NCBI GenBank assembly: GCA_020057225.1
Contig: JAGVGH010000053.1
Coordinates: 1 to 46,343 of the forward strand
DNA from: Desulfobacterales bacterium
Lineage (GTDB): Bacteria > Desulfobacterota > Desulfobacteria > Desulfobacterales > Desulfatibacillaceae
Reading direction: 5' to 3'
DNA: 46,343 nucleotides
Of the stretch, positions 166 to 31,900 are shown one piece after another (position 1 is the first letter of the stretch; each line of letters opens with the position of its first letter). Under the pieces are notes generated by a model that saw nothing but the letters and a program-made list of their open reading frames with translations, made no database searches and was not told the origin of the DNA. Position numbers and translations under genes: made by a program.

Positions 166-720
166 TCAGAACGGACTTATGAAACGCTCTAAGAGAACCT
201 TCGAGTACATCACCATGTCCTCCCCGGGTCTGTAATAATCCTTGAGCACGGCCTCGGCTTTGTATCCGCAACGCCCGTAAAACGCCCGGGTGGGCGTGTA
301 CTGCTCCCGGGAAGAGGTCTCCGCGTACATCCGCGCGGCCCCCATGCGCCGCGCCGCCTCTTCTGTCCTGGCCAGAAGGTGTTTCCCCAAAGACCTCCCC
401 CGGAGCGCCGGGTCCACCACAATCCAATAGAGGTCCTGGGAAGAGAGCGTGCCGGGTATAGGCCCATGGCAGGTGTAGCCCAAAACACGGCCCGCGCGCT
501 CGGCGAACACGAAAAAATAACCGCTCCTGTCCCCCTTGGAGAGCCTCTCCTCAACCAGCTCCACGGCGACCCCGGTTTCCTCCTCCGAGAAAAAACCCGA
601 TTCCGCCACCATGCGCCGGACAGTTTCCACGTCCCCTGGCCGGGCGGTTTCCCGGTATGTCACGTCTTCGGGCGCCGGGCACTGGTTTGCCAGGGCCTTC
701 CAGATGCTTGCCTCTCCCAT
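166..720 (-). CDS. GNAT family N-acetyltransferase
   Basis: ORF 166..816 trimmed to the ATG at 720 (MGEASIWKAL...), 16 nt after the stop of the upstream gene. It has the acetyl-CoA-binding-type motif RGRSLGKHLL and a GNAT-like core (YWIVVDPALRG ... FYGRCGY). Confidence 0.85.
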   Translation of the reverse strand: MGEASIWKALANQCPAPEDVTYRETARPGDVETVRRMVAESGFFSEEETGVAVELVEERLSKGDRSGYFFVFAERAGRVLGYTCHGPIPGTLSSQDLYWIVVDPALRGRSLGKHLLARTEEAARRMGAARMYAETSSREQYTPTRAFYGRCGYKAEAVLKDYYRPGEDMVMYSKVLLERFISPF

Positions 721-736
721 GCGGGTTCCTTTGCGT

Positions 737-1762
737 TTAGGGCCGTGAACAGTCCCGGGCGATTCTTCCCACCACATCCGTGAAACTGAGACCCGCCTCG
801 GCCGCCGCGGCCGCAAAGCCGCTGTCCGGGGCGATGCAGGGGTTGGCGTTCACCTCCAGTATCCACGGCCTGCCCTGGCTGTCCAGGCGGAAATCCACAC
901 GGGCGTATCCCTTGAGGTTGAAAACCTTCCAGCAGCTTAGGGAGAGATCCGCGAGTGATTCAACAAGCGGTCCGTCTCCCGGCGCCCGGGCAAAGCTCCT
1001 GGGTGTGTTGTGGTAGCCGTGGGACGAGGGATCCCACTTGGCGGCGTAGTCCACTATTTTTGGAGCGCCTTCCGGATGGTTGACAAACAGGATTTCCGCG
1101 GGAGGCAGCGCCTCGGGAACGCCGTCTGGCCCGGCAAGAAGGGAGATGTTGAACTCCCTGCCGTCAATGAAGCGTTCGGCGTAGCACTCCCCTCCAAGCC
1201 TCTTTTTCCGCGCGCGCATAAGGGCCGCAAGCTCCCGGGCGTCCTTGGCCTCCACCACGGAATCCGGTCCCATGCCGATGGAGGCGTGCTCCCACACGGA
1301 CTTGATGATGAAGCGTCCGGAAACCTCCCGGTCTTTGGCTTTGCGGGATACGGGGGACGCAAGCCCGGGCAGGGTGTGGCTTTCAGGGGTTGGAAGCCCG
1401 GACGCGGCAAGGATGCGTTTGCCAAGGGCCTTGTTGGAGGTGAGGAACATGGCCTCGGAGCCGGAGCCGGTGAAGGGAAGGCCCAGGGTCTCCAGCAGGG
1501 CCGGGGCCAGGTGAATGAGCCGCCCGCGGCCTCCGGGCCCTTCGACAAGGTTCACCGTCAACCGGGGCTTGAGGCGCAGGATGTCTTTCCGGACGCGCTC
1601 CATGTCCAGGGTGAAAGAGACGGGCGACGGGCCGTATCCCAGGGCGGGCAAAACCAGGCGCACAGCCTCGGCCTGTGCCAGGGCGTCCTCCTCGTCCGGG
1701 GGAGCGCCGGGTTCCACCGGGCAATAAAGAATGGCGGCGCGTTTCATCCGCGTGGCAGGCAT
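737..1762 (-). CDS. ATP-grasp ligase, D-alanine--D-alanine ligase family (paralog 2)
   Basis: The ORF opens at TTG 1771, overlapping the upstream stop (TTGA). ATG 1762 has GGGGA 9 nt upstream; ATG 1747 is an alternative start. The Ddl-like layout includes LGLPFTGSGSEAMFLTSNKALGKRILAASGLPTP and the C-terminal ILEVNANP ATP-grasp motif. Confidence 0.85.
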   Translation of the reverse strand: MPATRMKRAAILYCPVEPGAPPDEEDALAQAEAVRLVLPALGYGPSPVSFTLDMERVRKDILRLKPRLTVNLVEGPGGRGRLIHLAPALLETLGLPFTGSGSEAMFLTSNKALGKRILAASGLPTPESHTLPGLASPVSRKAKDREVSGRFIIKSVWEHASIGMGPDSVVEAKDARELAALMRARKKRLGGECYAERFIDGREFNISLLAGPDGVPEALPPAEILFVNHPEGAPKIVDYAAKWDPSSHGYHNTPRSFARAPGDGPLVESLADLSLSCWKVFNLKGYARVDFRLDSQGRPWILEVNANPCIAPDSGFAAAAAEAGLSFTDVVGRIARDCSRP

Positions 1763-1767
1763 GGTGT

Positions 1768-2832
1768 TCAATCCCCTGTCCAGACCAGGGTATCCAGATA
1801 GTTTTCAAGCTCCCTGTCCAGGGGAAGCGGCTCCTCGGCCAGAGGCGCGGGAAAGGGAAGCCCCTCCCGGGACAGGGCGGAGCGCATGATTTGACCTAAA
1901 AGGTCCCGATAGGTAAGCCCGGCTAGCCCGCACAGGATTGGGAGGTCGGAATGCCGGGGATGGATGCCGGCCAGAGGGTTCACCTCGATGAAACACATCC
2001 TCCCCTTGGCGTCCGCGCGCACATCCACACGGCCCGCGTCCCTGCATCCCAGGGCCCTGTAGGCCGCAAGGGCCACCTGGCAGGCTTCCTGCCCCAGGGG
2101 GCCTGTCTCGATACGGTATTCCACCCGTCCGTCGCAGTTCTCCTTGTTGAACCAGGAATACACGCCCGGCTCCGCGGTATCGAGCAGCACCACCTCCATG
2201 GCGCCCAGGGCCCGGGCGTTTTGTCCGGCGCCGGCGATGCCCACGGTGAATTCCCGACCGGGGAGGTATTCCTCCACAAGCACAGGCTGCCGGTATTTCT
2301 CCAGAAGCTCCCGGCCCACGCGGGCGAGGTCCTCCCGGGTTTCCGCCCGGGACGCCGGGCTCACGCCCTTGCCGGTGCCCTCGGCAAGAGGCTTGGCAAA
2401 GAGCGGGAAGGGAAGGTTTATGGATTGGAAGTCTTCCGGGGTCTCCGCCACGGCGAAATCCGGGGTTGGAATTCCCAGGTCCCGCGCAACACGCTTGGCC
2501 GCGGCTTTATCCAGAGTGACACAGAGGCAAAGCGGTCCCGCGAATGTGTAGGGGATTTTCCAGGCGTCCAGAAGGGCGGGAACCAGGGCTTCCCTGCCTG
2601 TGCCGTAGAGTCCTTCGGCGATGTTGAACACGATGTCCCAGCGGGCGCCGGAAAGAAGCCGGGCCATGAGGCTTTTGGCGTTGCCCGCGCGCTCTGTTTG
2701 AAACCCCAGGGAGCGCAGGGTGGCCTCGATACCCTCGATGGTCTGGATGGAGTCGAACTCCGCGCATTCCTCCAGGGACATTCCCTCGTTGAGATAGTCA
2801 TCCCGCAAATCGTAGCACAATCCGACGAGCAT
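1768..2832 (-). CDS. ATP-grasp ligase, D-alanine--D-alanine ligase family (paralog 1)
   Basis: ORF trimmed to ATG 2832 (MLVGLCYDLRDDY...), with GAGG 9 nt upstream. It contains WKIPYTFAGPLCLCVTLDKAAAKRVARDLGIPTP and the FIEVNPLAG ATP-grasp core. It aligns with the downstream gene and so is a paralog of it. Confidence 0.85.
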   Translation of the reverse strand: MLVGLCYDLRDDYLNEGMSLEECAEFDSIQTIEGIEATLRSLGFQTERAGNAKSLMARLLSGARWDIVFNIAEGLYGTGREALVPALLDAWKIPYTFAGPLCLCVTLDKAAAKRVARDLGIPTPDFAVAETPEDFQSINLPFPLFAKPLAEGTGKGVSPASRAETREDLARVGRELLEKYRQPVLVEEYLPGREFTVGIAGAGQNARALGAMEVVLLDTAEPGVYSWFNKENCDGRVEYRIETGPLGQEACQVALAAYRALGCRDAGRVDVRADAKGRMCFIEVNPLAGIHPRHSDLPILCGLAGLTYRDLLGQIMRSALSREGLPFPAPLAEEPLPLDRELENYLDTLVWTGD

Positions 2833-3073
2833 GGGGAGCCGCCTCGCGCGCGGCTGAAATGACACGGGGGCGGCCTCGGGGTCTGTTCAAAAATTACTGT
2901 ACCCTTCGGTGGCCGCTTTATCCCGTGCGGCGGCGTTCCGCTCCTTGCGGAATAGAGAGACTATTCCGGGAGGAGCGCGCCTTGCCGCCCGGGCAAATCG
3001 GCCACCTCTGTGTGGAACATTAATTTTTTCACAGACCCTATAGCCGCCCCCGGCGGTGACAGGAAACAGCGGT

Positions 3074-4399
3074 TTAGAGAAGAGGCCCGCAACCCGCGTC
3101 CGGAACCGGGTCCGGATACCGGTAGATATTGCCTTCATAGTTTTGCAGCACAAGGCCCTCCGGCCCGTGGGCTTTCACATACTCCGGCAGCAGGGGGATT
3201 TTCCCGCCGCCGCCAGGGGCGTCCACCACGTAATGGGGCACCGCGTAGCCGCTGGTGTGGCCCCGGAGTCCCTGGATAACGTCCAGGCCCGCCTTGACCG
3301 TGGTTCTGAAATGCGCGCTGCCCGTTATCGGGTCGCACTGGTAGAGGTAGTAGGGCCGTACCCTCTGGCGCAGGAGCCCCTGGACCAGACGGGTCATCAC
3401 CGGCGCCCCGTCGTTCACCCCCTTGAGCAAAACCGTCTGGCTCCCCAAGGGAATCCCCGCGTCCGCCAGCCGCTCGCAGGCCTGGCGGCATTCGGGAGTG
3501 AGCTCGTCCGGATGGGCGAAGTGCAGGCTCATCCAGAGCGGATGGTGTTTTTTCAGCATCCGGACCAGGGCCGGGGTGATCCGCTGGGGCAAAACCGCGG
3601 GCACCTTGGTTCCGATGCGGATAATTTCCACGTGGGGAATGTTCCGCAGCCGGGCAAGAAGCCAGTCCAGCTTTGCGTCCTCCATGGTCAGGGGGTCGCC
3701 CCCGGAAATGAGCACGTCGCGCACCGAGGGCGTGGCCCTGATATACGCGAGCGCCTCTTCCCAGGAGCGCTTGTTTGCCCTCTGGCTGCCGCCGCGTCCC
3801 ACCATGCGGCTCCGGGTGCAGTAGCGGCAGTAGGTCGAGCAAAAGTCCGTGACCAGAAAGAGCACGCGGTCCGGGTATCTGTGAATAAGTCCAGGGGCCA
3901 CGGCGTGGCCGTCCTCGCCCAGAGGGTCGTCGGCCTCTTCCGGCCCTTTCAGGTACTCGCCCATGGTCGGCACCACGGTGCGCCGAAGGGGCTGCGCCGG
4001 GTCCGCCGGGTCAAGAAGGCTCATGTAGTAGGGCGTCACCGCTGTTGGGAAACACCCCGCCGCGCGCCCAAGGGCGGCCTTCTCGTCCTCCGAGAGGGCA
4101 AGCATGGCGCCGAGACGGCCCGCGTCCGCAACGCGGTTTTTAATCTGCCATCTCCAGTCGCACCACTCCGCGTCTGTCGTGTTCCTGAAATGCCGGGCGA
4201 TGAATGCCCGCGTGGATTCGCCGACATGGAAGTCCGCGTGGGCCGGCCTCTTGGGGAGGCGGACGACACAGGGTCCGGTGGGGGGTTGAATGCTCCCGGA
4301 TTCGCGCGGGACTGTCACTCCCGCCATCCAGGATTCGGGCGCCCTGGAATGGGCGCCCGGAGGCTCCGCGGCTTCATTGGTTAGAGCCATGGTCTCCAT
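3074..4399 (-). CDS. kamA: KamA-family radical SAM lysine 2,3-aminomutase-like protein
   Basis: It carries the radical-SAM CxxxCxxC motif in FLVTDFCSTYCRYCTRS. KamA-type N-terminal block: EWCDWRWQIKNRV ... AVTPYYMSLLDPADP. C-terminal block: GYAVPHYVVDAPGGGGKIP. The start is uncertain (4399, 4390 or 4327); any of them leaves a 40-65 aa N-terminal extension. Confidence 0.9.
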   Translation of the reverse strand: METMALTNEAAEPPGAHSRAPESWMAGVTVPRESGSIQPPTGPCVVRLPKRPAHADFHVGESTRAFIARHFRNTTDAEWCDWRWQIKNRVADAGRLGAMLALSEDEKAALGRAAGCFPTAVTPYYMSLLDPADPAQPLRRTVVPTMGEYLKGPEEADDPLGEDGHAVAPGLIHRYPDRVLFLVTDFCSTYCRYCTRSRMVGRGGSQRANKRSWEEALAYIRATPSVRDVLISGGDPLTMEDAKLDWLLARLRNIPHVEIIRIGTKVPAVLPQRITPALVRMLKKHHPLWMSLHFAHPDELTPECRQACERLADAGIPLGSQTVLLKGVNDGAPVMTRLVQGLLRQRVRPYYLYQCDPITGSAHFRTTVKAGLDVIQGLRGHTSGYAVPHYVVDAPGGGGKIPLLPEYVKAHGPEGLVLQNYEGNIYRYPDPVPDAGCGPLL

Positions 4400-4474: not shown

Positions 4475-4840
4475 CTACGGGGCCGCGGGGCCCTCCTTCT
4501 TCCCCGCCGCGTCGTTCTCCCCGTCCTCCGCCCCTTCCATATCGGCTTCCTCCGGGGCGGGATCCGGTACGTCCCCTAAAACCTTATAAGAAGTGACCCG
4601 GATGATTTTTCCCCACTCGTCCTCGTCCACCGAGCCGGTCACCTCGACCAGCTTGGGTCCCAGATTGACGAGCTCCCGGCCCTTGCCCGAGTCCTCGATG
4701 TCGTAGGACTGGCCGTCCTGGGCCGAAAGGGTAAACTCGGCCACCGTTCCCTGGATGGCGAGGGTCTGGCCCGCCTCGGCCGCCAGGGAAAAAAGCAGGA
4801 CAAAGACCGCGAACACAAAGAAGGCCGCTGCGTTTTTCAT
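4475..4840 (-). CDS. small secreted hypothetical protein (paralog B)
   Basis: The ATG at 4840 overlaps the upstream stop (ATGA), with GGGGAG 9 nt upstream. Signal-peptide-like N-terminus MKNAAAFFVFAVFVLLFSLAAEA and an acidic C-terminal tail. It shares the core G.V.(D/E)E.(G/W).K.IRV with the upstream gene. Confidence 0.7.
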   Translation of the reverse strand: MKNAAAFFVFAVFVLLFSLAAEAGQTLAIQGTVAEFTLSAQDGQSYDIEDSGKGRELVNLGPKLVEVTGSVDEDEWGKIIRVTSYKVLGDVPDPAPEEADMEGAEDGENDAAGKKEGPAAP

Positions 4841-5145
4841 TTCCGGGCGCTCCCCGGGGCCATGCGCCCCGCTCCGCCGGACTCCGCCGGGCGCGCCGGT
4901 TCCCGGGCCTGTTCCCGGAAACGGCATGTCTCAACGCGTATGGACTTGCGGCCGCCCTCGTCGTACACGGTGCCCTCGGCCTCGACCATTCCGCGCAGGA
5001 AAGGCCCCAGCGCGTCCCTCATCCCGCCGGGCAGAACCTCATACTCCTCCTCGCCCGGCGTGGATATGAGATACCCCACAGCCAGGCCAGAGGCGTCCCA
5101 CGCCGAGGCCAGCACAAGTCCCTCCACCTTGCCAAACACGCCCAT
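4837..5145 (-). CDS. small hypothetical protein (paralog A, no signal peptide)
   Basis: ATG 5145 is preceded by AGGAG with a 5-nt spacer. The product MGVFGKVEGLVLAS... contains MVEAEGTVYDEGGRKSIRVETCR, which aligns with LVEVTGSVDEDEWGKIIRVTSYK of the next gene. Confidence 0.65.
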   Translation of the reverse strand: MGVFGKVEGLVLASAWDASGLAVGYLISTPGEEEYEVLPGGMRDALGPFLRGMVEAEGTVYDEGGRKSIRVETCRFREQAREPARPAESGGAGRMAPGSARK

Positions 5146-5208: not shown

Positions 5209-5224
5209 ATCAAGACCTGTGCCA
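5209..5224 (-). promoter_or_regulatory. candidate sigma-54 (-24/-12) promoter
   Basis: The minus strand reads TGGCAC-AGGTC-TTGAT. That is a perfect -24 element with correct 5-nt spacing, but the -12 element is TTGA rather than TTGC. It sits about 65 nt upstream of ATG 5145 and immediately downstream of a sigma-54 activator gene. Confidence 0.5.
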
Positions 5225-5391
5225 AGTTTATAACATACTGATTTTTAGATATTTATCAGGTCTTATGGGCGATAGCCAAAACCCTCTCGGCAGGCCTCGG
5301 AACCCTTTTCCTTGCCCCGGCCCGGCGCGTCCGGTTCCAAAGGGTGGTGGACCTTATACAAGTCCATGATATAAATCAAGAAATATTAAAC

Positions 5392-5406
5392 GGAACTCCG
5401 GGTTCC
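5392..5406. promoter_or_regulatory. GGAAC-N5-GTTCC dyad: either the terminator hairpin of the activator gene or an upstream activator site
   Basis: ggaactccgggttcc lies 44 nt past the stop of the activator gene and about 170 nt upstream of the -24 element. More GGAAC/GTTCC half-sites occur at about 5299, 5334 and 5432. On the minus strand the hairpin is followed by TTTAATATTT. Confidence 0.35.
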
Positions 5407-5449
5407 CGTTTTTTTCTCAAGGGAAGCGCCGGTTCCGCTTTTTTCTCTG

Positions 5450-6910
5450 TCAGGGGGCCCTGACTCCCCGGAACTGCTCTTTTTTCAACCCGTGCCGCGC
5501 CATGAGCTTGTGCAACTGCCGCGCGGTGATGCCCGCGGCCTTGGCGGCCTCGTTGATTTTTCCCTGGTGCCGGGAAAGAACCCCGTGGAGATACTCCCGC
5601 TCCGCCGCGATAAGCGTCCGCTGCCGGTGCTGGGCAAGGGTCGGCTCCGGTCCCGCAGGGTCCATGGCCAACGGCCCGGATTGCGGCACGTACACAAAAA
5701 GCTCCGCCGGAAAATTCTCCGGGGAGAGCGCGGTCCCGCTCTCAAGGATATAGGCCCGCTCCACCAGGTTCTCGAGCTCCCGGATATTGCCGGGCCAGTC
5801 ATACAACTGAAGCGCCTCGATGACAAGAGGGTCAATCTCCGTGATTCCCTTGCCGTACTGCCGCTCCAGGGCGCGGAGAAAAAACAGGGCGAACTGCTCC
5901 GCGTCCTCGATGCGTTCCGAGAGCGGCGGTACCTGGATGGGGAACACATTGAGCCTGTAGAAAAGATCCTTGCGGAAGCCGCCTTCCCGGGCCAGGGCCT
6001 GCAGGTCCATGTTGGTGGCGGCGATGATCCGGACATCCCCCTCGATGGCCTGCTCGCCGCCCACCCGGGTGAAGCACCCGTCCTGAAGCACTTGAAGCAG
6101 CTTCACCTGGGCGCCCGGCGTAAGGGTCGCGATCTCGTCCAAAAAGATGGTGCCGCCCTTGGCGATTTCAAAGCGTCCGAGTTTCCGGCGCGCGGCGCCT
6201 GTGAAAGCGCCTTTCTCATGGCCAAACAGCTCGCTTTCAAGCAGGGTGTCGGGAATGGCGCCGCAGTGAACAGCGATAAACGGCCCGTTCCTTCGGCTGC
6301 TGTGCCGGTGAATGAGGCGGGCCAGCACGCCTTTTCCTACTCCGGTTTCGCCTATCAGAAGCACGGTGCTCCGGGTGGGGGCCACGGAGCGGATGTTTTC
6401 AAAGACCCGGCACATGAGGGGGCTTTGGGTCTGGACAACGTCCAGGGCGTCCTTTTCCCAGAATTCACCCCTGAGGTAGGCGAGCTCGGAGCGGGCCGCC
6501 GCGTGGGAGCGGAGTTTCTCCACAAGATGCCGGGCAAGCTCGGGCCGGACAGGGTAGAGGAGGTGTCCCGCCGCTCCGGCTTTTTCAGCCAGCACGGTTT
6601 CCCGGGCCATTTCCTGCGACGCGAGCACAATCACGTCCATGGCGGGGTAAAGGGCCTTGAAGGGGGCGAGCATCTGGCCGGGAGCGTCTTTGGGCGCGCA
6701 TTCCAGAAGCAGGGGAAGATGGGCGAAGACGAACTCGTGCCGGTTAAGGCGGAGGATGTCGAGGGCCGCGGTGGCGGTGGGCGCCCAGGCCAGGGAATAG
6801 TCCGGAGCGAGGCACGCGGCCAGGGTGTCGCGGGTGGCGGGGTCGCTTCCCGCAAGAAGGGCGCGCTTGGGGGGGCGGTTGCTTTTGGGGGCTTCTCCTG
6901 GCTGGTCCAT
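5450..6910 (-). CDS. sigma-54-dependent Fis-family transcriptional activator (NtrC-like) with a degenerate receiver domain
   Basis: ORF trimmed to ATG 6910, with GAGG 5 nt upstream. AAA+ sigma-54 interaction module: GETGVGKGVLARLIH (Walker A), ESELFGHEKGAFTGA (GAFTGA loop), FLDEI (Walker B). C-terminal Fis-type HTH: INEAAKAAGITARQLHKLM. Confidence 0.92.
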   Translation of the reverse strand: MDQPGEAPKSNRPPKRALLAGSDPATRDTLAACLAPDYSLAWAPTATAALDILRLNRHEFVFAHLPLLLECAPKDAPGQMLAPFKALYPAMDVIVLASQEMARETVLAEKAGAAGHLLYPVRPELARHLVEKLRSHAAARSELAYLRGEFWEKDALDVVQTQSPLMCRVFENIRSVAPTRSTVLLIGETGVGKGVLARLIHRHSSRRNGPFIAVHCGAIPDTLLESELFGHEKGAFTGAARRKLGRFEIAKGGTIFLDEIATLTPGAQVKLLQVLQDGCFTRVGGEQAIEGDVRIIAATNMDLQALAREGGFRKDLFYRLNVFPIQVPPLSERIEDAEQFALFFLRALERQYGKGITEIDPLVIEALQLYDWPGNIRELENLVERAYILESGTALSPENFPAELFVYVPQSGPLAMDPAGPEPTLAQHRQRTLIAAEREYLHGVLSRHQGKINEAAKAAGITARQLHKLMARHGLKKEQFRGVRAP

Positions 6911-7322
6911 GGCGCCTCGCCGGGAAGGTGTCAGAGGGGGCGGAATGAGACGGGCCGCCGGGCGCGCTGTCCATGTCCCCTGCGGGAGACGGGCAGGGCG
7001 CCCGGCGCGTTGGAGGTTTGTAGCGCCGGAGGGGGTCTTGGTCAAGAGGATAATGGGGGAGAAGAGCAGGCCCCGGCGCTAGCGTCCGTTTTTTCACAAG
7101 CGGGCGGGAGGCCATGGATTCCGGCGGAAGGACCGTTGCTTCCAGAATGGCGTGGAACGCGCTTCCGGGAGGCATCTTGTCGGCGTCATGGAAAGCAAGG
7201 CAGGGGCGGCAAGGAAAAGCAAGGCAGGGGCGCCGGAGCGGCCCGCCGGACTGGCCTGCGGGACAAGCGCCTGCCGAAAGGCGGAGCGCCCCGGCGTTTC
7301 CAGTCCCCTTATGCCCCGGGCT

Positions 7323-17043: not shown

Positions 17044-17607
17044 TTAGGTTTTAGCCTGCGCGGAGTTTTCCTTGTCATATTGCCAGAGCGCCCGGTCCAA
17101 TGTTCGCATGGATACACCTATATCAATTGCTAAGTCACGGCAAAATAGAACGTAGTTCCACCAAAAATCGAAGTGATAAGTAGGGTTTTTTGGTATTTCA
17201 ATGGATAAAGAATTTAGCGCATGATAATCGAGAATTGGATAATTATCTTGATGAAAAAGATGCAAGATAGCTGAGGCCATAGGCCATGCTACTCCATCTA
17301 GAATTTGTAACGCCTCAATGCGCGCTCTTTCACAAGTTGTTTTTAGGCTGAATCGAGTTAAATCAACAATACAACTTTTATCGTTTTTTTGAATATATTT
17401 TCTCGGTCTTGGTGATTTCCAGTCTGCAATTATGCGAAATTCATCTTCTGTTAAGTGTCCACGCTGTTGAACATTATCTTTCATTAATATGATAGACTTT
17501 TCTGTATCCATAACTGATTTTTTCGTAGCATTTATGTAATTCTTTTCCAAGTCCATGAGTTCGGATTTATCGAATTTAAGAGTTGGCTTAAATTCTAACT
17601 TTGGCAT
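17044..17607 (-). CDS. hypothetical protein on a low-G+C island (tentatively HhH/OGG-fold-like)
   Basis: ATG 17607 has GAGGA about 8 nt upstream; ORF-start 17676 is less likely. G+C is about one-third (20 of 60 in line 17161), against about two-thirds in the flanks. The block LDGVAWPMASAILHLFHQDNYPILDYHALNSL ... MRTLDRALWQY recalls small HhH/OGG-fold proteins. The function call is weak. Confidence 0.75.
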   Translation of the reverse strand: MPKLEFKPTLKFDKSELMDLEKNYINATKKSVMDTEKSIILMKDNVQQRGHLTEDEFRIIADWKSPRPRKYIQKNDKSCIVDLTRFSLKTTCERARIEALQILDGVAWPMASAILHLFHQDNYPILDYHALNSLSIEIPKNPTYHFDFWWNYVLFCRDLAIDIGVSMRTLDRALWQYDKENSAQAKT

Positions 17608-17702
17608 TGCATTTTCCTCTGAGTTATTATAGTATTTGAACTTGTTTAAATAATTATGCTTCGGCAAATTGTGCATAGAGCAACACCGAAGACCGCATTT
17701 GT

Positions 17703-23730: not shown

Positions 23731-25416
23731 CTAAAACGCCTCCACCCGAAACTGGCAGCTCACCCCTTCGTCCTGAATGTCATAATCCGGCGGCTCATCC
23801 ACGTCCCGGAAACCCTTGCCCCAATACAACCGAAACCCGACCCCCTCCGTTATATCCCACACCACCCCTGTCCCCGCCGAATAGATACTCTCCGGCACAG
23901 GGTCCGCCCCCGAATGGTTCCACCCCTGCCCAAAATCCATAAAAAACGCAAGCTGCACCAGCCCCGGGCCTTGCCGCCCCTCCATCTCCGGAAACCTGAG
24001 CCTCCCCACCGCCCAGCGCCACTCCACACTTGCCGTAACCCCGTTGTCCGTCGTAAGCTGGTTCTCCCGGTATCCCCGAACCGTGGAATCCCCCCCTATC
24101 ACAAACTTCTCCGCAGGCGGCAAATCATTGTCGCACACCTGGGCGCCGGCCCTGAATATCAAAACAGAGCCTAAGGACTCCACCCGCTCCATCCACCAAA
24201 ACCGGGGAAGAAACGCAAGATAACGCTCGTCCGCCCGCCTCCGGCGCTCCACCTCGCCAAGCATCAGGCTGGACTGAAAAGAAACAACACGCTCCGCATC
24301 CCGGCGCGACCATTCCCCAAGAACGCCAAGGGCGTTGATGGTGCTTTTTCCGTAATCCACGTTGGGAGCAAAGGAATACGGCTCCCCCAAAAGCCGCGTC
24401 TTGCCCCAGGTCTTCCCGCCCCGCAGACCTATGGAAAACTCCTGGACCGGACTCCTGCTCAACGGCAGGCGCGCTGTCATCCCCGCCGCTGTGGACTTGC
24501 TCTGAATATCCAAAATATCCAAGGGCGGCTGCACAATGGCCGTCTCCTCGCGCGCCACGTCCATCCCCAGCGTGGCCCCTCCCGCCCCCAAAGGCGCCGT
24601 GTAGGAGGCCATGTACTCCTTGGACCCGGTGGACAGCCCGAACCTTGCCTCCAGGGTGTCGCCCATGCCCAGCACGGACAGGTGTTTGCCCTGGACCCGG
24701 GCAAGGCAGGATCCCACACTGGGGGGCTTGTGGTTGGAAAGGTCAAAGGAGAGACTGTAAGGCCGCTTTTCCCTGACCTTGACAAACAGGGCCGATTCCC
24801 CTTCCCTGGTTCCTTTGCCGGTCTTCACCTCGACATCCTCCACGCGGGGATCGGCCCTGAGCAGCGCAAGGCGGCGTTCGAGTTCCTGGACATTGAGGGG
24901 CGCCGGACGCTCCCCGGCCTTATATCCCAGGCGCCGGGTGATGTAGGAGGGAGAGAGGCTCACATTGCCGGAAACCTGGATAAAAGTGAGGTTGCTTTCG
25001 CTCACCGCAAGCCGGACCACCCCGGTTTCCGCCTCCTGGGAGGCGAGCACCGCGGCGTTGGGGTATCCCGCGTCCGTGTAGAACCGGGTCACGGCGTCCG
25101 CGGCCTTTTTCAGGACATCCGGAGTGCCTTGCCGGCCCAGCCAGGGGGCGGTCACAGGGGCGAGGACTTTTTGACTGAAAACCGTGTTGCCGGAGAAACG
25201 GAATTCCCGGACTGGCAGGGCGGCGCGGGAAGCGTCCCGGCTCCGGGTCAGAAGGTCCCGGGCGGCCTTGCTTTCCTCGGGCCACTGAAGGGGCCTTGCT
25301 GTTTCCGGCATTCCGCCGGCTCCGGCCTGGGCCGGAAGACCGGGAGCCTGGGCGCGGGCAGGCGCCGCCGCAAGCAGCAGCGCGGCGAAAAGGCTTATGG
25401 GGAGGGATCGTTTCAA
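23731..25416 (-). CDS. ShlB/FhaC/HecB-family (TpsB) outer-membrane transporter with POTRA region
   Basis: The ORF's N-terminal 153 codons read through the MITE and are discarded. TTG 25416 gives MKRSLPISLFAALLLAAAPARAQA, a classical signal peptide. TpsB hallmarks are present: FVIGGDSTVRGY, a 16-strand-like C-terminal half and a terminal aromatic residue (…FRVEAF). Confidence 0.85.
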   Translation of the reverse strand: MKRSLPISLFAALLLAAAPARAQAPGLPAQAGAGGMPETARPLQWPEESKAARDLLTRSRDASRAALPVREFRFSGNTVFSQKVLAPVTAPWLGRQGTPDVLKKAADAVTRFYTDAGYPNAAVLASQEAETGVVRLAVSESNLTFIQVSGNVSLSPSYITRRLGYKAGERPAPLNVQELERRLALLRADPRVEDVEVKTGKGTREGESALFVKVREKRPYSLSFDLSNHKPPSVGSCLARVQGKHLSVLGMGDTLEARFGLSTGSKEYMASYTAPLGAGGATLGMDVAREETAIVQPPLDILDIQSKSTAAGMTARLPLSRSPVQEFSIGLRGGKTWGKTRLLGEPYSFAPNVDYGKSTINALGVLGEWSRRDAERVVSFQSSLMLGEVERRRRADERYLAFLPRFWWMERVESLGSVLIFRAGAQVCDNDLPPAEKFVIGGDSTVRGYRENQLTTDNGVTASVEWRWAVGRLRFPEMEGRQGPGLVQLAFFMDFGQGWNHSGADPVPESIYSAGTGVVWDITEGVGFRLYWGKGFRDVDEPPDYDIQDEGVSCQFRVEAF

Positions 25417-25698
25417 ATCAGGCGCCGTGTTGCCGGGCAAGGCGCGGCAGGATGCCCGCCCGAAGCGAAAAGAACGTCCCGCGGTATGCGGGGGTATATT
25501 CCGGAATGCTGAAAGTGCCGCGCGCCAAAGACTATAGCAACCAGGGCAGGGAGGCGCAAGGCGATTCTTAGCAGAGCCGGGACAGCGGCGCGCGCCCAAA
25601 AGGCGTGAACTCCCCGTTGACAATCCCCGGTTTTCAGGCGAAAACCCAATGACAGTTCCATTTTTTCGGCTCCTGTTTTCGCGCTGGATCCGGACCTT

Positions 25699-25818
25699 AT
25701 ACCAAAATGCGGTCCAATCCGTACCACCTGCTGAAAGCTCCCGCTCCCGCTCAATCTCCCTCTCCCTGTGGGAGAGGGCTGGGGTGAGGGCGTACCTTGT
25801 CTGATTGCACCTTGGTAT
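25699..25818 (+). mobile_element. MITE-like element, full copy B (in the divergent promoter region between tpsB and the giant gene)
   Basis: The 120-bp element runs ataccaaaatgcggtcc ... ccctctccctgtgggagaggg ... gattgcaccttggtat. Its imperfect termini are ATACCAARRTGC, with an internal hairpin CCCTCTCCC-tgt-GGGAGAGGG. Its reverse complement matches 36364..36477 closely, apart from a 6-bp indel. Confidence 0.7.
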
Positions 25819-25958
25819 TAAAGAACAAAAACCTGCGGTTCTTCCAAAGGCCGGACCCGCCGCTTCCCGCGGCATCGAGGCACAACGCGTATCCCTTGTC
25901 CGTTCGCGCCCGACGCCGGACAGATAACCCGTGAACCGCCTTCCGGAGGTCTATTCCC

Positions 25959-28900
25959 ATGCGGCTCGCCAAACGCCAGGGCCATGCCCTTTTCCCCGCT
26001 CTCTTGCTCACACTTCTCTTTCTTTCCGCGGCGGGACAGTTTTCCGTGTGTCTCCCGGCGGACGCGCCCCCGCCTCCTGTCCTCTCCGCGGGAACGCCGG
26101 ACAGCGAAGGGCGGCCTGTCTGGACATGGACCTCGGGCAGGGGCGGCGGCGTAATGGTCTTTGCCGGGGGAGCGTTCTCCTCGGCGGGCGGCGCCGGGGC
26201 ATCCAACCTTGCGGCCTGGGATTCCAGGACCGGGGCATGGTCGGCGGTGGGAAAAGGCGTCGGCGGGCCTGTGCGCTCCCTTCTTGCGGACACCGGCGTG
26301 GTGCGCGTGGGCGGAGGAGCGGGAGTGGCTTTCTGGGACACCACGACCGGCGCGTTTCACACACCGGGCGGCGGCGTCGGGGGTGAGGTCCATGTCCTTG
26401 CCATGGACGGGGACGGCAGGCTGTACGCGGGCGGCGCGTTCCGCCAGGCCGGAGGAGAGTCCGCCCGCTCCATCGCGCGGTGGAACCCTGGCGCCCGTGT
26501 CTGGTCCGGTTTGGGCGGCGGTCTTCCCGGCCCGGTGTTCGCCATTGCCATCGGCGGCGGGCATGTGTACGGCGGCGGCTCTTTTGCCCTGGACGTTCCC
26601 GGGGCCGGGGCCAACATGGCCCGGTGGTCCCTCTCCGAAGGCGCGTGGCGGGGGGTTGCCGGAGGGGCGAACCGGACAGTCACCGCCATGGCCATGGGAC
26701 CGGACGGCAGCCTGTACGCCGCGGGGGAGTTTTCCCAGGCGGGCGGCCTTGCGGCGGGAAACGTGGCGGCCTATGACCCGGGAAGCAAAACCTGGCGCGC
26801 CTTGGGCAAAGGCCCGGGCGGCCCGGTGTACGCCCTCCTGCACTGGGGGGGCGCCTTGTACGCGGCAGGCTCGTTTTCCGGCGGCGTGGCCCGGTACTCC
26901 GCGGGCGCGTGGAAAAAGCCCGGGGGAGGACTGGACGGCGGAGACGTCCTGGCCCTGGCCGACGGACCGGACGGCAGGCTGTACGCGGGCGGAAGATTCA
27001 CCCTTGCCGGGGGCGTTGCCGCCGGACATGTGGCGGCCTGGAACCCTGGCCAGGGCGCCTGGACTCCCCTGGGAGCGGGGGTCGGCGGCCCTGTGCGCGC
27101 CCTTGGGGTTCTCCGGATTCCCGTGTACCGGGTGAAACTGGATGATCCCTCCCTGGAGCAGGGCGCCCGTATCACCTCCAAAGAAACCTTTGCGCCTGAA
27201 AGCGCGACCGGACAGCATACGCTGTATGTCCAGGAGGGCGGGCTTCTTGGCAACTGGTCCCCCTCCGCCTCCCTGGCGCTTCAGGCGGGCGCGCCTCCGG
27301 CGGCGGCTCCTGCGGTTCCCGCCGATGTGACCCTGGCCGCTCCCGCTCCGGCCCCCGCGCCGCCTGTTCCGCCTGTCCCTGCGGTTGCCCCGGCAGTCCC
27401 GGAGCCGGAACCCCCTGCCCCAGCGGAAACCCTGGAGGACGCCGGGGAAAAGCCGGAGGCGGCGCCGGAAGAGGCCGGAGAGATTGAAATCGGGGAAGGA
27501 GGCGAGGCCGCTGTGGCGCCGGAGGAAGCGCCCGAACCTGTGGCGCCTGTCACGCCCGCGACTCCGCCGCCCCCCCCGGCTCCTGTTCCGCCTCCGCCCA
27601 GAGTCAACGTGGTCAATCCTGTTCTTCCGGGCGGCATTCCCCCTGTCAAACCGTTCACCGCCATCGAAGAGCCGCTTCCCGCCGCGTCCTCTCCGGGGGA
27701 GGCAACGCCCGCCGCCCTCCCAGGTCCGGACGGACTTACGCCTTCCGGCAGGCCCGGCGGCGCGCCCTTGCCAGGGGCGCCCCTTGTCTCGGTTGTGGAA
27801 GCCACCAACAATCCCAGGCCCGCCTTTGAATGGCAGTCCGGCGGCGGCGGCTCCGGACTGTTCCATTACCGCATAGGCTTCGACGCCGCCTGGATGGAAA
27901 CCCGGGAAACCCGGTACACCCCAACAAGCGCCCTGCCTGACGGACGCCACACCCTGTATGTCCAGGAGGCGGACACGGAAGGCCGCTGGTCGGATCCCGG
28001 CGCCGCCACCGTGGTTGTGGACTCCACCCCCCCCCATCCGCCGGTGGTTTCGGTCAAGACTCCCACCAGCGAAAAAAGCCCGGAATGGACCATTCAAAGC
28101 GGGGGGGACGGCGAGGGCGTGTTCGGCGTCCAGTTGGACGCGCGGGACAAGGACGGCTGGAAAGAGTTCACCGGAACGTCCTTTCGCCCGGAAACCCCCT
28201 TTGAGGACGGAAAACACGTCCTCCATGTCCGGGAACGGGACAAGGCGGGCAACTGGTCCGGGGTGACCTCCCGTGAAGTGACGGTGGACACCGCGCCCCC
28301 CAAAACTCCAAGGCTCAAGGCGGTAAGCGCGCCCATGGCTCCCAGGCCCGCGTGGATCTGGGAAAGCGGCGGAGGAGGCGCCGGGATTTTCCGGTATCAG
28401 ATGGACGGCCAAAAAGAAGACGGCGCCACGGAAACCAAAGAGAAAAAATTCTCCGTGGAAGAATACCTCGCCTCCGGGGAGCACGCCCTGTTTGTCCAGG
28501 AAACGGACGAGGCGGGCAACTGGAGCGAGGCCGCTGGCCTGACAGTGACCGTGGACGCCAGCGCCCCTGGAAAACCCAGGGTTTCCGCCAAAAGCCCGGT
28601 CAACACGCGGACCCCCGGCTGGACATGGGTGAGCGGAGGCGAAGGTTCGGGGGTTTTCCGCGTTCAACTGAACGGCGAGGCCGAAGGCAAGTGGGCCACT
28701 GTCGAGGCGTTTGAGTACACGCTGTCCAAGCCCGTGCCCAAGGACGGAAAACACACTCTCTACGTGCAGGAGGCCGACCCCGCGGGCAACTGGTCCGAGT
28801 CCGGTTCAGGGGAGGCCCTGGTGGACACGGAGCCTCCGGATCCGCCAAGGGTCGAGTGCCCGGAAACCACCACCTCGCCCGCCCCGGTCTGGCGCTGGAA

Positions 28901-31900
28901 ATCCGGCGGCGGTGGAAACGGCCTCTTCCGCCTTCGCCTGGACGTGGCGGAAAACGGTCCGTGGACCGAGACCGCCGCCACGGAATACAGCCCGGAAAAG
29001 CCCTTTGAGACAGAAGGCGCCCATGTTTTGGAAGTCGCGGAGCAGGATGCCGCAGGCAACTGGTCCGAGGCCGGAAGGGCGGAAACCCTGTTTGACAAAA
29101 CCCCTCCCGCCCCTCCCGCCCTTGAGGTGAAAACCCAGGGAACCGGGGCGCGGCCTGTCTGGACCTGGAAAAGCGGCGAGGGAGGCGCGGGCCTGTTCCG
29201 CTGCCGGCTGGACGGAAACCCCGAGGCGTGGGAGGAAACAGACCAAACCGCCTTCCGGCCCGAAACCAACCTCAGCCCGGAAAAGGAGCATGTTTTCGAG
29301 GTCCAGGAGCAGGACAAGGCAGGCAACTGGAGCGCCTCCGCCGCGCTTTCCACCGTTGTGGACACCAAGGCCCCGGAGCCTCCCATCGTGACGGTTCAAA
29401 GCCCCACGCGCAACCGGAGGCCCTCCTGGTCCTGGAAAACGGGCGGCGGGGGAACGGGAGTGTTCGAAGTGCAGCTTGACGGCACGGACGATGGCAAGTG
29501 GGCCGTTGTCGAGGCAAGCGCTTACACGCCGGCCAAGCCTTTGAAGGACGAGGGGGAGCACGCGCTGTACGTGCGGGAGAAGGACGCGGCGGGCAACTGG
29601 TCCGACCCGGGCAAGGCGGCGGTGGTTCTGGACAGGACCCCGCCCGCGCCTCCGGGATTTATGAAAAACGAGGCGGTGAACACTCGGCAGCCTGTGTGGC
29701 GCTGGAAATCCGGCGAAGGCGGGGAAGGTCTCTTCCGCTACCGGCTTGGAGAGGGCCCCTGGACAGAAACCCGGGAAACGGAATTCCGGCCCGCGCCGCC
29801 TTTTGAGAAGGACGGGCGGTATGTGCTCGAAGCCGCGGAGCGGGATACCGCGGGCAACTGGTCGGAAACCGCAAGCCAGGCTCTTACTGTGGACACGGAG
29901 CCTCCCGCCGCGCCCAAAGTCGTGGGCCTGGAGGTCACATCCAACGGCACGCCCACCTGGACCTGGACGCCGGGCGGCGGCGGCGCAGGCGTCTTCCGCT
30001 GCCAGCTTGACGGCGAGGACGGGGAGTGGAAGACCCTGGAGGAGACGGATTTCACTCCGGGCGAGGCATTGGATGAAAGCGGCCCGCACACGCTCTTTGT
30101 GCAGGAGCGGGATATTGCGGGCAACTGGTCCTCATCAGGGAGCCATGCGGTCACGGTGGACACAACCGCGCCCGGCGCGCCGGTTGTGACGGTTAAAAGC
30201 CCGACCAGCGACGCCACGCCGGAATGGACATGGAAGTCCGGGGGCAACGGCGCCGGGGAGTTCCGGGTACAGCTTGGCTCAGAAGAGGAAAAATGGACGG
30301 AAACCCAAAAGACCTCCTTTACCCCTGACAAACCCGCGGCCAAGGACGGGGAGCTTACGCTTTTTGTGCAGGAGCGGGATTCCGCGGGCAACTGGTCGCC
30401 CAGCGGCTCGGCCCGCGCGCTGGTGGACACCAAGCCTCCTGCCCCTCCCAAGGTTGAGGTGAAAAGCCCTGTGGCGACAGCCCGTCCCGCGTGGCGCTGG
30501 ACAAGCGGCGGAGGCGGCGGGGGATTCCGGCTCAAGACCTCCTGGGGCAAGGGGGACTGGGTGGAAACAGCAGCAACGGAATACACGCCGGGCGGGGATT
30601 TGACCGCCGGAAAGGGTTACACCGTCCATGTGCAGGAGAGGGACGCGGCGGGCAACTGGAGCGCGTCCGCCCAGGCCGGAACCTTGGTTGACACGGAGCC
30701 TCCCAAGGCTCCCAAGGTAACAGGCAAGACCCCTGTCGCCACACAGACCCCGACTTGGGAATGGACGGGCGGAGGAGGCGGCGCCGGGATCTTCCGGACA
30801 CGGCTTGATTCCGCCGACGCCCAGGCCATGGAGATTTCCGCCACGTCCTGGACCGCTCCGGAACCCCTGGAGGACGGGGACCATGTCCTTTCCGTGGAGG
30901 AGCGGGATATTGCGGGCAACTGGTCCTCATCAGGGAGCCATGCGGTCACGGTGGACACCACCGCGCCCGGCGCGCCGGTTGTGACGGTTAAAAGCCCGAC
31001 CAGCGACGCCAGGCCGGAATGGACATGGAAATCCGGAGGCAACGGCGCCGGGGAGTTCCGGGTACAGCTTGGTTCGGAAAAGGGGACGTGGACGGAAACC
31101 TCAAAGACCTCCTTTGCCCCTGACAAACCCGCGTCCAAGGAGGGGGAGCTTGTGCTCTATGTGCGGGAGCGGGACCTTGCGGGCAACTGGTCGCCAAGCG
31201 GATCCGCCCGCGCGCTGGTGGACACAACACCCCCTGCCCCTCCCAAAGTGGAGACAAAAAGCCCTGTAACAACACCCCGGCCCACATGGCGCTGGACAAG
31301 CGGCGGAGGTGGCGGGGGATTCCGGCTCAAGACTTCCTGGGGCAAGGGGGACTGGGTGGAAACAACAGCGACGGAATACACGCCGGGCGGGGATTTGACC
31401 GCCGGAAAGGGTTACACCCTGGAGGTCCAGGAAAAAGACCTTGCCGGAAACTGGAGCGCGGCCGGCTCAGGCAAGGTGCTCATTGACACCGAGCCGCCCA
31501 AACCGCCCAGGGTTGCCGGAGCAACCCCTGTCACAACCAAAACCCCGGCATGGGAATGGGAAAGCGGCGGGGGAAATGGCGCGGGGGTTTTCCGGACGCG
31601 GTTAGACTCCGGGAAAGCGGCTCCGGAGGAAACCTCCTACACCCGGTTTACCCCCTCCGCGCCCCTTGCGGACGGAGAGCACACGCTTTTTGTGGAGGAG
31701 CGGGATATTGCTGGCAACTGGTCCGCCCCCTGCAGCCACACGGTAACGGTGGACACCGTGGCGCCCCCGGCTCCCAAGGTGACAGGACAAAGCCCGACCG
31801 CTCTGCCCCGCCCCGCGTGGACCATTGAAAGCGGCGGCGGCGCAGGCGTCTTCCGCGCGCAACTGGACGGGGACTCCCCGGACGGCTGGTTCAATCCCGC

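Follow-up and report, generated by a model that had tools for sequence, protein, structure and literature searches.

Organization of the locus

The stretch of DNA analyzed here (the window; 46,343 nucleotides of contig JAGVGH010000053.1, assembly GCA_020057225.1, from a Desulfobacterales bacterium) carries close to its beginning an operon of four genes, all on the minus strand. In the direction of transcription, the first gene (positions 3074–4399) encodes a 441-aa protein of the KamA family, a radical S-adenosylmethionine (radical-SAM), pyridoxal 5'-phosphate (PLP)-dependent aminomutase that is predicted to be an L-lysine 2,3-aminomutase and is referred to below as KamA. It is followed by two genes for ATP-grasp ligases with the D-alanine–D-alanine ligase (Ddl) fold and a Dala_Dala_lig_C domain, ligase A (1768–2832; 354 aa) and ligase B (737–1762; 341 aa), and by a gene for a 184-aa GNAT N-acetyltransferase with an Acetyltransf_1 domain (166–720). 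An earlier note on this DNA, made from the sequence alone, had described four open reading frames (ORFs) here and had proposed that they make a beta-lysine-derived product more elaborate than acetyl-beta-lysine. All four were found where it had placed them and on one strand, the CSTYCRYC and GGGGKIP blocks that it had pointed out occupy residues 187–194 and 396–402 of KamA, and the 16-nt gap between ligase B and the GNAT gene (721–736) was verified in the sequence.

Two details of the layout had to be revised. The genes had been called tightly packed, which holds for the 16-nt gap before the GNAT gene but not for kamA and ligase A: the database call and the homologues place the start of ligase A at ATG 2832 rather than at GTG 2865, resulting in a spacer of 241 nt. 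The letters TTGA are present at 1768–1771, but the stop/start overlap that had been read from them is less likely than a 5-nt gap. Of the two alternative starts of ligase B, ATG 1762 (341 aa) and TTG 1771 (344 aa), the former is the likelier because it is served by an AGGGGA Shine-Dalgarno sequence and homologues begin with 'MK..A.LY'.

Conservation of the gene neighborhood

The most conserved gene of the cluster is ligase A, whose homologues are about 60% identical across phyla. More than 8000 database relatives at about 60% identity were found, an exhaustive scan yielded 692 representative clusters at E ≤ 1e-30, and relatives occur in at least 591 species-level genomes. The best 80 loci span more than 10 phyla, including Thermodesulfobacteriota, Planctomycetota, Bacteroidota, Spirochaetota, Acidobacteriota and Myxococcota, with further hosts among the Alpha- and Gammaproteobacteria, Ignavibacteriales, Cloacimonadota, Lentisphaerae and others. 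Synteny was counted in these 80 loci, restricted in each case to those with flanks long enough to be evaluated. Ligase A is immediately preceded by KamA in 67 of 73 loci and followed by ligase B in 70 of 77, and a GNAT gene is part of the cluster in 52 of 61. The most frequent order is KamA-A-B-(deacetylase)-GNAT, with which separate Pfam-labelled contexts agree, and the smallest recurring unit is the pair of KamA and ligase A (loci L034 and L039). Gene fusions point in the same direction: among the 150 best representatives, at least 35 contain two ligases, one of them being P0242, which joins ligase A to ligase B, and KamA–ligase A fusions exist in both orders (P0257 and P0391). The neighborhood of kamA, two ATP-grasp genes and a GNAT gene is hence conserved over many phyla and backed by fusions. 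The linkage is far beyond chance, with the same order kept in dozens of phylogenetically distant genomes.

The flanks of the related loci contained no recurring exporter or transporter, peptidase or precursor-peptide gene, and no recurring amidotransferase gene was present in the flanks examined. A crude clustering of flanking ORFs, which was marred by antisense ORFs in GC-rich DNA, revealed no further widely common family. In the flanks of L004 and L086 we observed a gene for a YitT-family membrane protein (within the cluster in L086) and, near the cluster, a gene for an MscS-type mechanosensitive channel.

KamA is most similar to lysine 2,3-aminomutases

A question raised by the earlier note was whether the KamA homologue might fall in the EpmB clade, which acts in the modification of elongation factor P (EF-P). 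The protein was scored against NCBIfam models at their curated cut-offs, including TIGR00238 (KamA subfamily), TIGR03820 (AblA) and TIGR03821 (EpmB). The broad KamA subfamily model was the only one passed (346 bits; cut-off 199). The EpmB model gave 253.7 bits, below its cut-off of 369.3, and the glutamate and arginine 2,3-aminomutase models gave 423 bits (cut-off 650) and 380 bits (cut-off 600), respectively; the AblA equivalog model gave 476.1 bits. Identity to E. coli EpmB is 36%, compared with 50% to the solved lysine 2,3-aminomutase (LAM) of Clostridium (2A5H), which matches KamA at E = 5e-135 and is the top Foldseek match of its AlphaFold2 model, the core of which is confident. By model scores and identities, KamA is therefore closest to LAM/AblA rather than to EpmB or to the glutamate or arginine aminomutases.

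The residues expected of a lysine aminomutase are in place. Cys125, Cys129, Cys132, Arg134, Asp293, Asp330 and Lys337 (2A5H numbering) are all kept, and the matching positions are invariant or at least 95% conserved over 70 homologues of KamA from the clusters. In LAM, the CxxxCxxC cysteines hold the radical-SAM cluster, Arg134 binds the carboxylate and Lys337 binds PLP; Asp293 and Asp330 bind the epsilon-ammonium group of lysine and are replaced by Lys and Asn in glutamate 2,3-aminomutase. Both of these Asp residues (D356 and D393 of the window protein) are invariant in the KamA alignment. Given the LAM-type scores, the retained lysine-binding residues and the low likeness to EpmB, the EpmB-clade objection falls, and lysine is the most likely substrate, with beta-lysine as the predicted product. 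It should be pointed out that the public gene call of KamA (P0121) is only 343 aa long and misses the N-terminal tail and the WxDWRWQ region because its start was set within the conserved core.

The two ligases are distinct families with altered specificity residues

Among the NCBIfam models, both ligases match Ddl models alone and are not of the RimK/LysX type. Ligase A scores 82 bits against Dala_Dala_lig_C and 134 bits against the Ddl subfamily model, and ligase B scores 65 and 112 bits, the cut-off of the Ddl model being 243 bits. The AlphaFold2 model of ligase A (pLDDT 89) revealed nothing beyond the Ddl fold; its top Foldseek matches are Ddl enzymes at 21–29% identity, with TM-scores of about 0.8 when normalized to the target and 0.7 by query length. 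The two ligases had been described as paralogs of each other. They are 25% identical to each other and each is 26–32% identical to E. coli DdlB by alignment, and since their mutual distance about equals the distance of each to DdlB, we regard them as two distinct, separately conserved families and not as the outcome of a recent tandem duplication.

Residues at DdlB positions were counted for ligase A (83 sequences) and ligase B (71 sequences). In ligase A, the residues for ATP, Mg and catalysis (K97, K144, E180, K215, R255, D257, E270 and N272) never vary; about 70 of the ligase B sequences keep the same set, and E187 is likewise essentially invariant in both. One ligase B row, that of the window, was read with a frame shift of one base, which leaves the counts unaffected. 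The positions that confer D-Ala-D-Ala specificity (E15, S150, Y216, S281 and L282) have diverged, and neither ligase keeps the set. Ligase A carries Thr at S150, Glu at Y216 (61 of 83), Asp at L282 (83 of 83) and, in addition, Glu at H63 (83 of 83); ligase B carries Asp at E15, Ala at S150, Trp at Y216 (71 of 71), Asp at H280 and Gly at L282. With an invariant catalytic set and altered specificity positions, both look like active amide-forming enzymes for substrates other than D-alanine. From the additional invariant acidic residues surrounding its second-substrate site, we infer that ligase A would be suited to a substrate carrying a second ammonium group, such as beta-lysine. Two relatives of ligase A (P0385 and P0253) were found as fusions to a SET (lysine methyltransferase) domain and to a CxxCxxCC metal-binding domain.

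The acetyltransferase and an accessory deacetylase

The GNAT protein matches Acetyltransf_1 at 50.7 bits. Its best NCBIfam match is RimI (44 bits, under the cut-off of that model), and the AblB model TIGR03827 gave no match at E ≤ 0.001. Among solved proteins, the GNAT is best matched by 2R7H (E = 3e-40), a structural-genomics entry described as a "putative D-alanine N-acetyltransferase".

A deacetylase gene joins the cluster in 19 of 61 loci (for example at L001:10054–11799). The encoded protein of about 580 aa has two domains, a weakly GNAT-like N-terminal region and a C-terminal region resembling acetylpolyamine amidohydrolases (E = 1e-70). Enzymes of the latter kind deacetylate N-acetylated terminal alkylamines, and the resemblance suggests reversible acetylation of the epsilon-amine in the beta-lysine moiety. 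At L088:11708–13147, a gene for a group II PLP-dependent decarboxylase overlaps the stop codon of the GNAT gene and may supply or modify an amine building block.

These data bear on two other explanations of the cluster. The first requires no joint pathway: KamA and the GNAT would make N-epsilon-acetyl-beta-lysine, and the Ddl-like genes would be cell-wall ligases present by coincidence. KamA and a GNAT do occur together, and automated annotations label the ligases "D-alanine--D-alanine ligase". This explanation is nevertheless scarcely credible, as the ligases lie far under the Ddl cut-offs and have lost the Ddl specificity residues, dozens of distant genomes preserve their place between kamA and the GNAT gene, fusions join them to one another and to KamA, the GNAT is not of the AblB type, and no mur or fts genes are nearby. 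Coincidental adjacency of cell-wall Ddl genes is contradicted by synteny, fusions and residue changes alike and is effectively excluded.

The second explanation is that the ligases build a polymer or oligomer, either poly- or oligo-beta-lysine or a cyanophycin-like nitrogen store, in which acetylation and deacetylation would set charge or mobilization. Two different ligases are reminiscent of the two ligase activities of cyanophycin synthetase, the acidic substrate-site residues of ligase A would suit a cationic chain, the deacetylase is of a polyamine type, and some lineages have NtrC-like sigma-54 control (see below). We consider a polymer improbable all the same. No depolymerase, primer or exporter gene recurs in the examined flanks, the Ddl-type enzymes characterized so far make, to our knowledge, single bonds, and the minimal pair of KamA and ligase A together with a capping GNAT fits a defined small product as well or better.

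A conserved Glu-Pro-Pro motif in the N-terminal tail of KamA

The unusual N-terminal extension of KamA that the earlier note had estimated at 40–65 aa was confirmed: residue 71 of KamA is the counterpart of residue 9 of 2A5H, placing the length of the extension at about 62 aa, and it is conserved in the family. Within it, the codons of a Glu-Pro-Pro-Gly motif lie at 4355–4366 (minus strand), corresponding to residues 12–15. Among 70 full-length cluster-type KamA proteins from loci L001–L085, 63 possess a [D/E]PP motif, preceded by an acidic run and followed by Ser, Gly or Asp. The motif lies 34–90 aa (median 60) from the core, to which it is connected by a non-conserved linker. AlphaFold2 assigned a pLDDT below 50 to residues 1–39, which include the motif, and predicted no secondary structure before residue 61. 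This pattern is a signature of a short linear motif that binds another protein. Both KamA–ligase A fusions (P0257 and P0391) are devoid of the Glu-Pro-Pro tail, an absence that, on two examples, is consistent with recruitment of ligase A by the tail. The motif is also a diprolyl sequence of the type that causes EF-P-dependent stalling, located near the start of a beta-lysine-making enzyme.

The tail is relevant to a further explanation, namely that the operon modifies a protein. The ATP-grasp enzymes would attach beta-lysine, or a short beta-lysyl peptide, to a carboxylate or amine of a protein, with the GNAT and the deacetylase editing the tag; candidate targets are a translation factor, a ribosomal protein, or the invariant Glu of the KamA tail itself acting as a LysW-like carrier. 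Besides the acidic Glu-Pro-Pro motif conserved in a disordered region, there are precedents in RimK, LysX/LysW and EpmA/EpmB, RimI is the best NCBIfam match of the GNAT, one ligase A is fused to a SET domain, and in L004 a LysW-like zinc-ribbon protein with EEEW/EEDW/QENW acidic repeats is encoded directly after the GNAT gene (L004:10816–11145). Other observations make protein modification unlikely. The ligases are Ddl-type rather than RimK/LysX-type, and KamA retains the residues for free lysine, including both Asp residues that bind the epsilon-ammonium group. The LysW-like gene was seen in 1 of about 85 loci, L004, and not in L086, and a search for EF-P homologues in the window and 87 related loci (1.43 Mb) found none near the clusters. 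No release hydrolase recurs, and the KamA tail is dispensable in the fusion proteins. As a general component of the system, a LysW-type carrier was rejected on the grounds that the LysW-like gene occurs in L004 alone and that the ligases are not of the RimK/LysX type.

A more specific version, which we find very doubtful, would make the motif Glu a site of covalent attachment or hand-over, that is, a LysW-like carrier in cis: one ATP-grasp ligase would tether beta-lysine to it, the second ligase and the GNAT would build on the tethered residue, and the HDAC-type amidohydrolase would set the product free. If true, this would constitute a new carrier-mediated or protein-tagging amino-acid chemistry, widespread among anaerobic bacteria.

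Upstream region and remainder of the window

Upstream of kamA, a gene on the minus strand (5450–7045) encodes a sigma-54-dependent transcriptional activator (enhancer-binding protein) with an atypical, receiver-like N-terminal region. It matches the Pfam families Sigma54_activat (222 bits), AAA_lid_14 and HTH_8, and scores under the cut-offs of all NCBIfam equivalog models. Homologous activators were located upstream of kamA in 10 of 60 evaluable loci, and the Pfam-labelled contexts also display one at L001, L004, L086 and L088; the activator is a probable regulator of the operon. A terminator-like hairpin (5388–5411, minus strand) with an 8-bp stem and a T-rich tail lies 39 nt past the activator stop codon. 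It is followed by an AT-rich spacer containing a candidate sigma-54 promoter, TGGCAC-N5-TTGA (5210–5224, minus strand). Better -24/-12 sites were found upstream of kamA in 9 of 65 related loci, compared with about 2.4 expected.

Between the candidate promoter and kamA are two small genes, both on the minus strand. The first past the promoter (4837–5145) encodes a cytoplasmic protein of 102 aa, and the second (4475–4840) encodes an exported paralogue of 121 aa with a Sec signal peptide MKNAAAFFVFAVFVLLFSLAAEA. The two proteins have a domain of about 70 aa in common, which is also present in ORFs of L088. Neither has a Pfam or NCBIfam match, and an insensitive word-index search returned no relatives of the cytoplasmic protein. 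With tblastn, its relatives were found between the activator and kamA in L001, L007, L008, L010, L013, L021, L080 and L088, and those of the exported protein upstream of kamA in L008, L009, L010, L021, L024, L070, L079 and L088, so that at least 12 related loci have relatives in the same position. The activators, the small proteins and the better sigma-54 sites recur in a subset of loci, mainly from Thermodesulfobacteriota.

An exported protein next to a beta-lysine enzyme calls to mind a secreted bioactive product, for instance a cationic beta-lysine peptide antibiotic, for which the acetyltransferase and deacetylase would serve as self-protection and activation switch, as in the acetylation of streptothricin. 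Several antibiotics contain beta-lysine, and GNATs confer resistance by acetylating its beta-amine; the co-transcription of the small exported protein in some lineages and the YitT membrane protein within the L086 cluster would also accord with such a role. We judge it quite improbable. An identity of about 60% in ligase A and a constant gene order over more than 10 phyla are atypical for specialized metabolites, no transporter or resistance gene recurs in the examined flanks, and a scan with PADLOC and for other conflict systems was empty. The same scan gave no match that would indicate a role in anti-phage defence.

The 241-nt spacer between kamA and ligase A (2833–3073, minus strand) contains an imperfect hairpin of about 190 nt, built from a 39-nt inverted repeat of 79% complementarity with arms at 2865–2903 and 3014–3052. 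The predicted RNA fold of the spacer has an energy of -134.5 kcal/mol and a z-score of -8.3. No second copy of the hairpin was found across the window or the related loci, and an Rfam search of the region gave no match. It could be an insertion resembling a miniature inverted-repeat transposable element (MITE) or a repetitive extragenic palindrome (REP), or an element of mRNA processing or stability.

The remaining genes of the window, which include those for a V-type ATPase, pheST, a ShlB-type outer-membrane transporter, a giant Ig-repeat protein and a type I secretion system, look unrelated to the operon. Just downstream of pheT, the segment 17001–18000 has a low GC content (0.445, compared with about 0.62–0.65 around it) and holds a 210-aa ORF (17044–17676) with no Pfam match. 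In the region 23731–46156, the gene for the ShlB/FhaC-type transporter (23731–25875) adjoins that for the Ig-like-repeat protein of 3232 aa (25959–35657; GC up to 0.72), past which two ABC exporters, an HlyD-type adaptor and an outer-membrane factor of type I secretion are encoded.

A proposed pathway to an acetylated beta-lysyl metabolite

The interpretation that we favor, with about even confidence, is that the conserved operon makes a cytoplasmic, N-acetylated beta-lysyl di- or tripeptide-like metabolite by two ligations and a GNAT step, in an uncharacterized pathway. In the first step, KamA would convert free L-lysine to beta-lysine with the aid of radical-SAM chemistry, PLP and its [4Fe-4S] cluster, as suggested by the conserved residues. 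Ligase A would then act directly on beta-lysine, most likely binding it as the attacking amine where Ddl binds D-Ala2; at this site, three positions have turned into acidic residues that vary little or not at all and could hold its second ammonium group. Beta-lysine would be joined to some carboxylate via an acyl-phosphate intermediate. Ligase B would form a second ATP-dependent amide bond, and the GNAT would acetylate a free amine, probably the terminal epsilon-amine, from which the deacetylase present in about a third of the genomes could take the acetyl group off again. The product would stay in the cytoplasm as an osmo- or stress-protectant or as a nitrogen-rich solute. The Glu-Pro-Pro tail most likely docks KamA to ligase A for direct hand-over of beta-lysine, and in the window and in related Thermodesulfobacteriota the neighboring sigma-54 activator probably switches the operon on.

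There are precedents for such a scheme. AblA and AblB make N-epsilon-acetyl-beta-lysine; the osmolyte N-acetylglutaminylglutamine amide (NAGGN) is the product of bacterial Ngg, in which a GNAT and an ATP-grasp ligase are fused; mammalian NAT8L and RimK-like ATP-grasp ligases make N-acetylaspartylglutamate (NAAG); and carnosine synthase, also an ATP-grasp ligase, uses a beta-amino acid. One of the closest systems is AblA/AblB of methanogens and some bacteria (yodP-kamA in B. subtilis), which likewise combines in one operon a LAM homologue having all lysine-binding residues with a GNAT and probably shares the acetylated beta-lysine moiety. The present operon differs from it by the two conserved ATP-grasp ligases between aminomutase and GNAT, by a short RimI-like or 2R7H-like GNAT in place of AblB (TIGR03827), and by an aminomutase that scores below the AblA cut-off, is devoid of the zinc site and the C-terminal domain, and has the Glu-Pro-Pro tail. 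With NAGGN (Ngg and the amidotransferase AsnO) and NAAG synthesis it would share the logic of an N-acetyltransferase plus one or more ATP-grasp ligases yielding an N-acetylated di- or tripeptide solute; the ATP-grasp subfamily is a different one, the absence of an amidotransferase sets the operon apart from the Ngg system as described, and the building block would be a beta-amino acid that the operon's own radical-SAM enzyme produces.

Compared with Ddl and Van enzymes, the ligases have the same fold (TM-score 0.7–0.8), the ATP-grasp catalytic, Mg and ATP residues, and presumably the acyl-phosphate chemistry. They are, however, only 21–32% identical to them and score under the family cut-offs, the E15/S150/Y216 triad and the S281/L282 pocket are altered in conserved, family-specific ways, and the genetic context is an aminomutase operon instead of mur/fts. 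Microviridin and graspetide systems are alike at the superfamily level in having two ATP-grasp ligases and a GNAT. Here, by contrast, the ligases are Ddl-type and not RimK-type, there is no conserved precursor-peptide gene and no transporter or protease gene, and no small ORF family recurs over the loci save the lineage-restricted pair of proteins of about 100 aa; the presence of KamA argues for a free amino-acid substrate, unlike in graspetide systems. In EpmB/EpmA, too, a KamA-family aminomutase supplies beta-lysine for an ATP-dependent ligation, whereas the cluster described here has an aminomutase outside the EpmB clade, ATP-grasp ligases instead of lysyl-tRNA synthetase (LysRS) paralogues and no linked efp, and it adds a GNAT and a deacetylase.

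Several observations weigh against the proposed pathway or limit it. The AblA score of KamA falls short of the equivalog cut-off (525.4 bits), the zinc ligand Cys268 is replaced by Gly so that the inter-subunit zinc site is gone, and the C-terminal domain is truncated, the protein ending near LAM residue 378 and matching positions 1–57 of the 127 of LAM_C; with these features, the substrate or the stereochemistry of KamA could differ from that of LAM. Many hosts are non-halophiles (Smithella, Syntrophus, and metagenome-assembled genomes from groundwater and soil), which weakens a purely osmolyte role. A docking function of the tail draws on two fusion proteins and a disorder prediction. With respect to regulation, the activator occurs in only 10 of 60 loci, and the candidate promoter in the window, perfect in its -24 element, has GA for GC at -12, a mismatch at one conserved position. 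The four steps, including their chemistry, the ligase substrates, the acetylation site and the type of product, are deduced from sequence, from which the product, including its second and third building blocks, is not nameable. A 2009 survey of amidoligase neighborhoods could hold an earlier prediction.

The proposal that the product goes beyond acetyl-beta-lysine is supported by an aminomutase that is not EpmB, a conserved neighborhood, non-Ddl specificity residues and a GNAT with no AblB match. The earlier note was also aware of no characterized pathway with this gene set, and a full-text literature search yielded no paper on it; papers on Pelobacter and on sigma-54 mention only ablAB or the COG and not the gene set, and those on D. 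alaskensis proved unrelated. Considering the conservation across more than 10 phyla and the lack of a matching pathway in the literature searched, the operon probably makes an undescribed beta-lysine-containing compound.

If this is true, hundreds of bacterial species, among them sulfate reducers, syntrophs, planctomycetes, Bacteroidota and spirochaetes, make an undescribed beta-lysine-based metabolite. The small size of the gene set makes direct heterologous expression feasible and the question testable. Recruitment of a downstream ligase by the KamA tail would, if confirmed, provide a defined case of a radical-SAM enzyme that does so through a short linear motif. Identifying the product would reveal what two large families, currently mislabelled as D-Ala-D-Ala ligase, and the GNAT 2R7H do, and would add a small molecule, be it an osmolyte, a nitrogen store, a buffer or similar, to the physiology of anaerobes.

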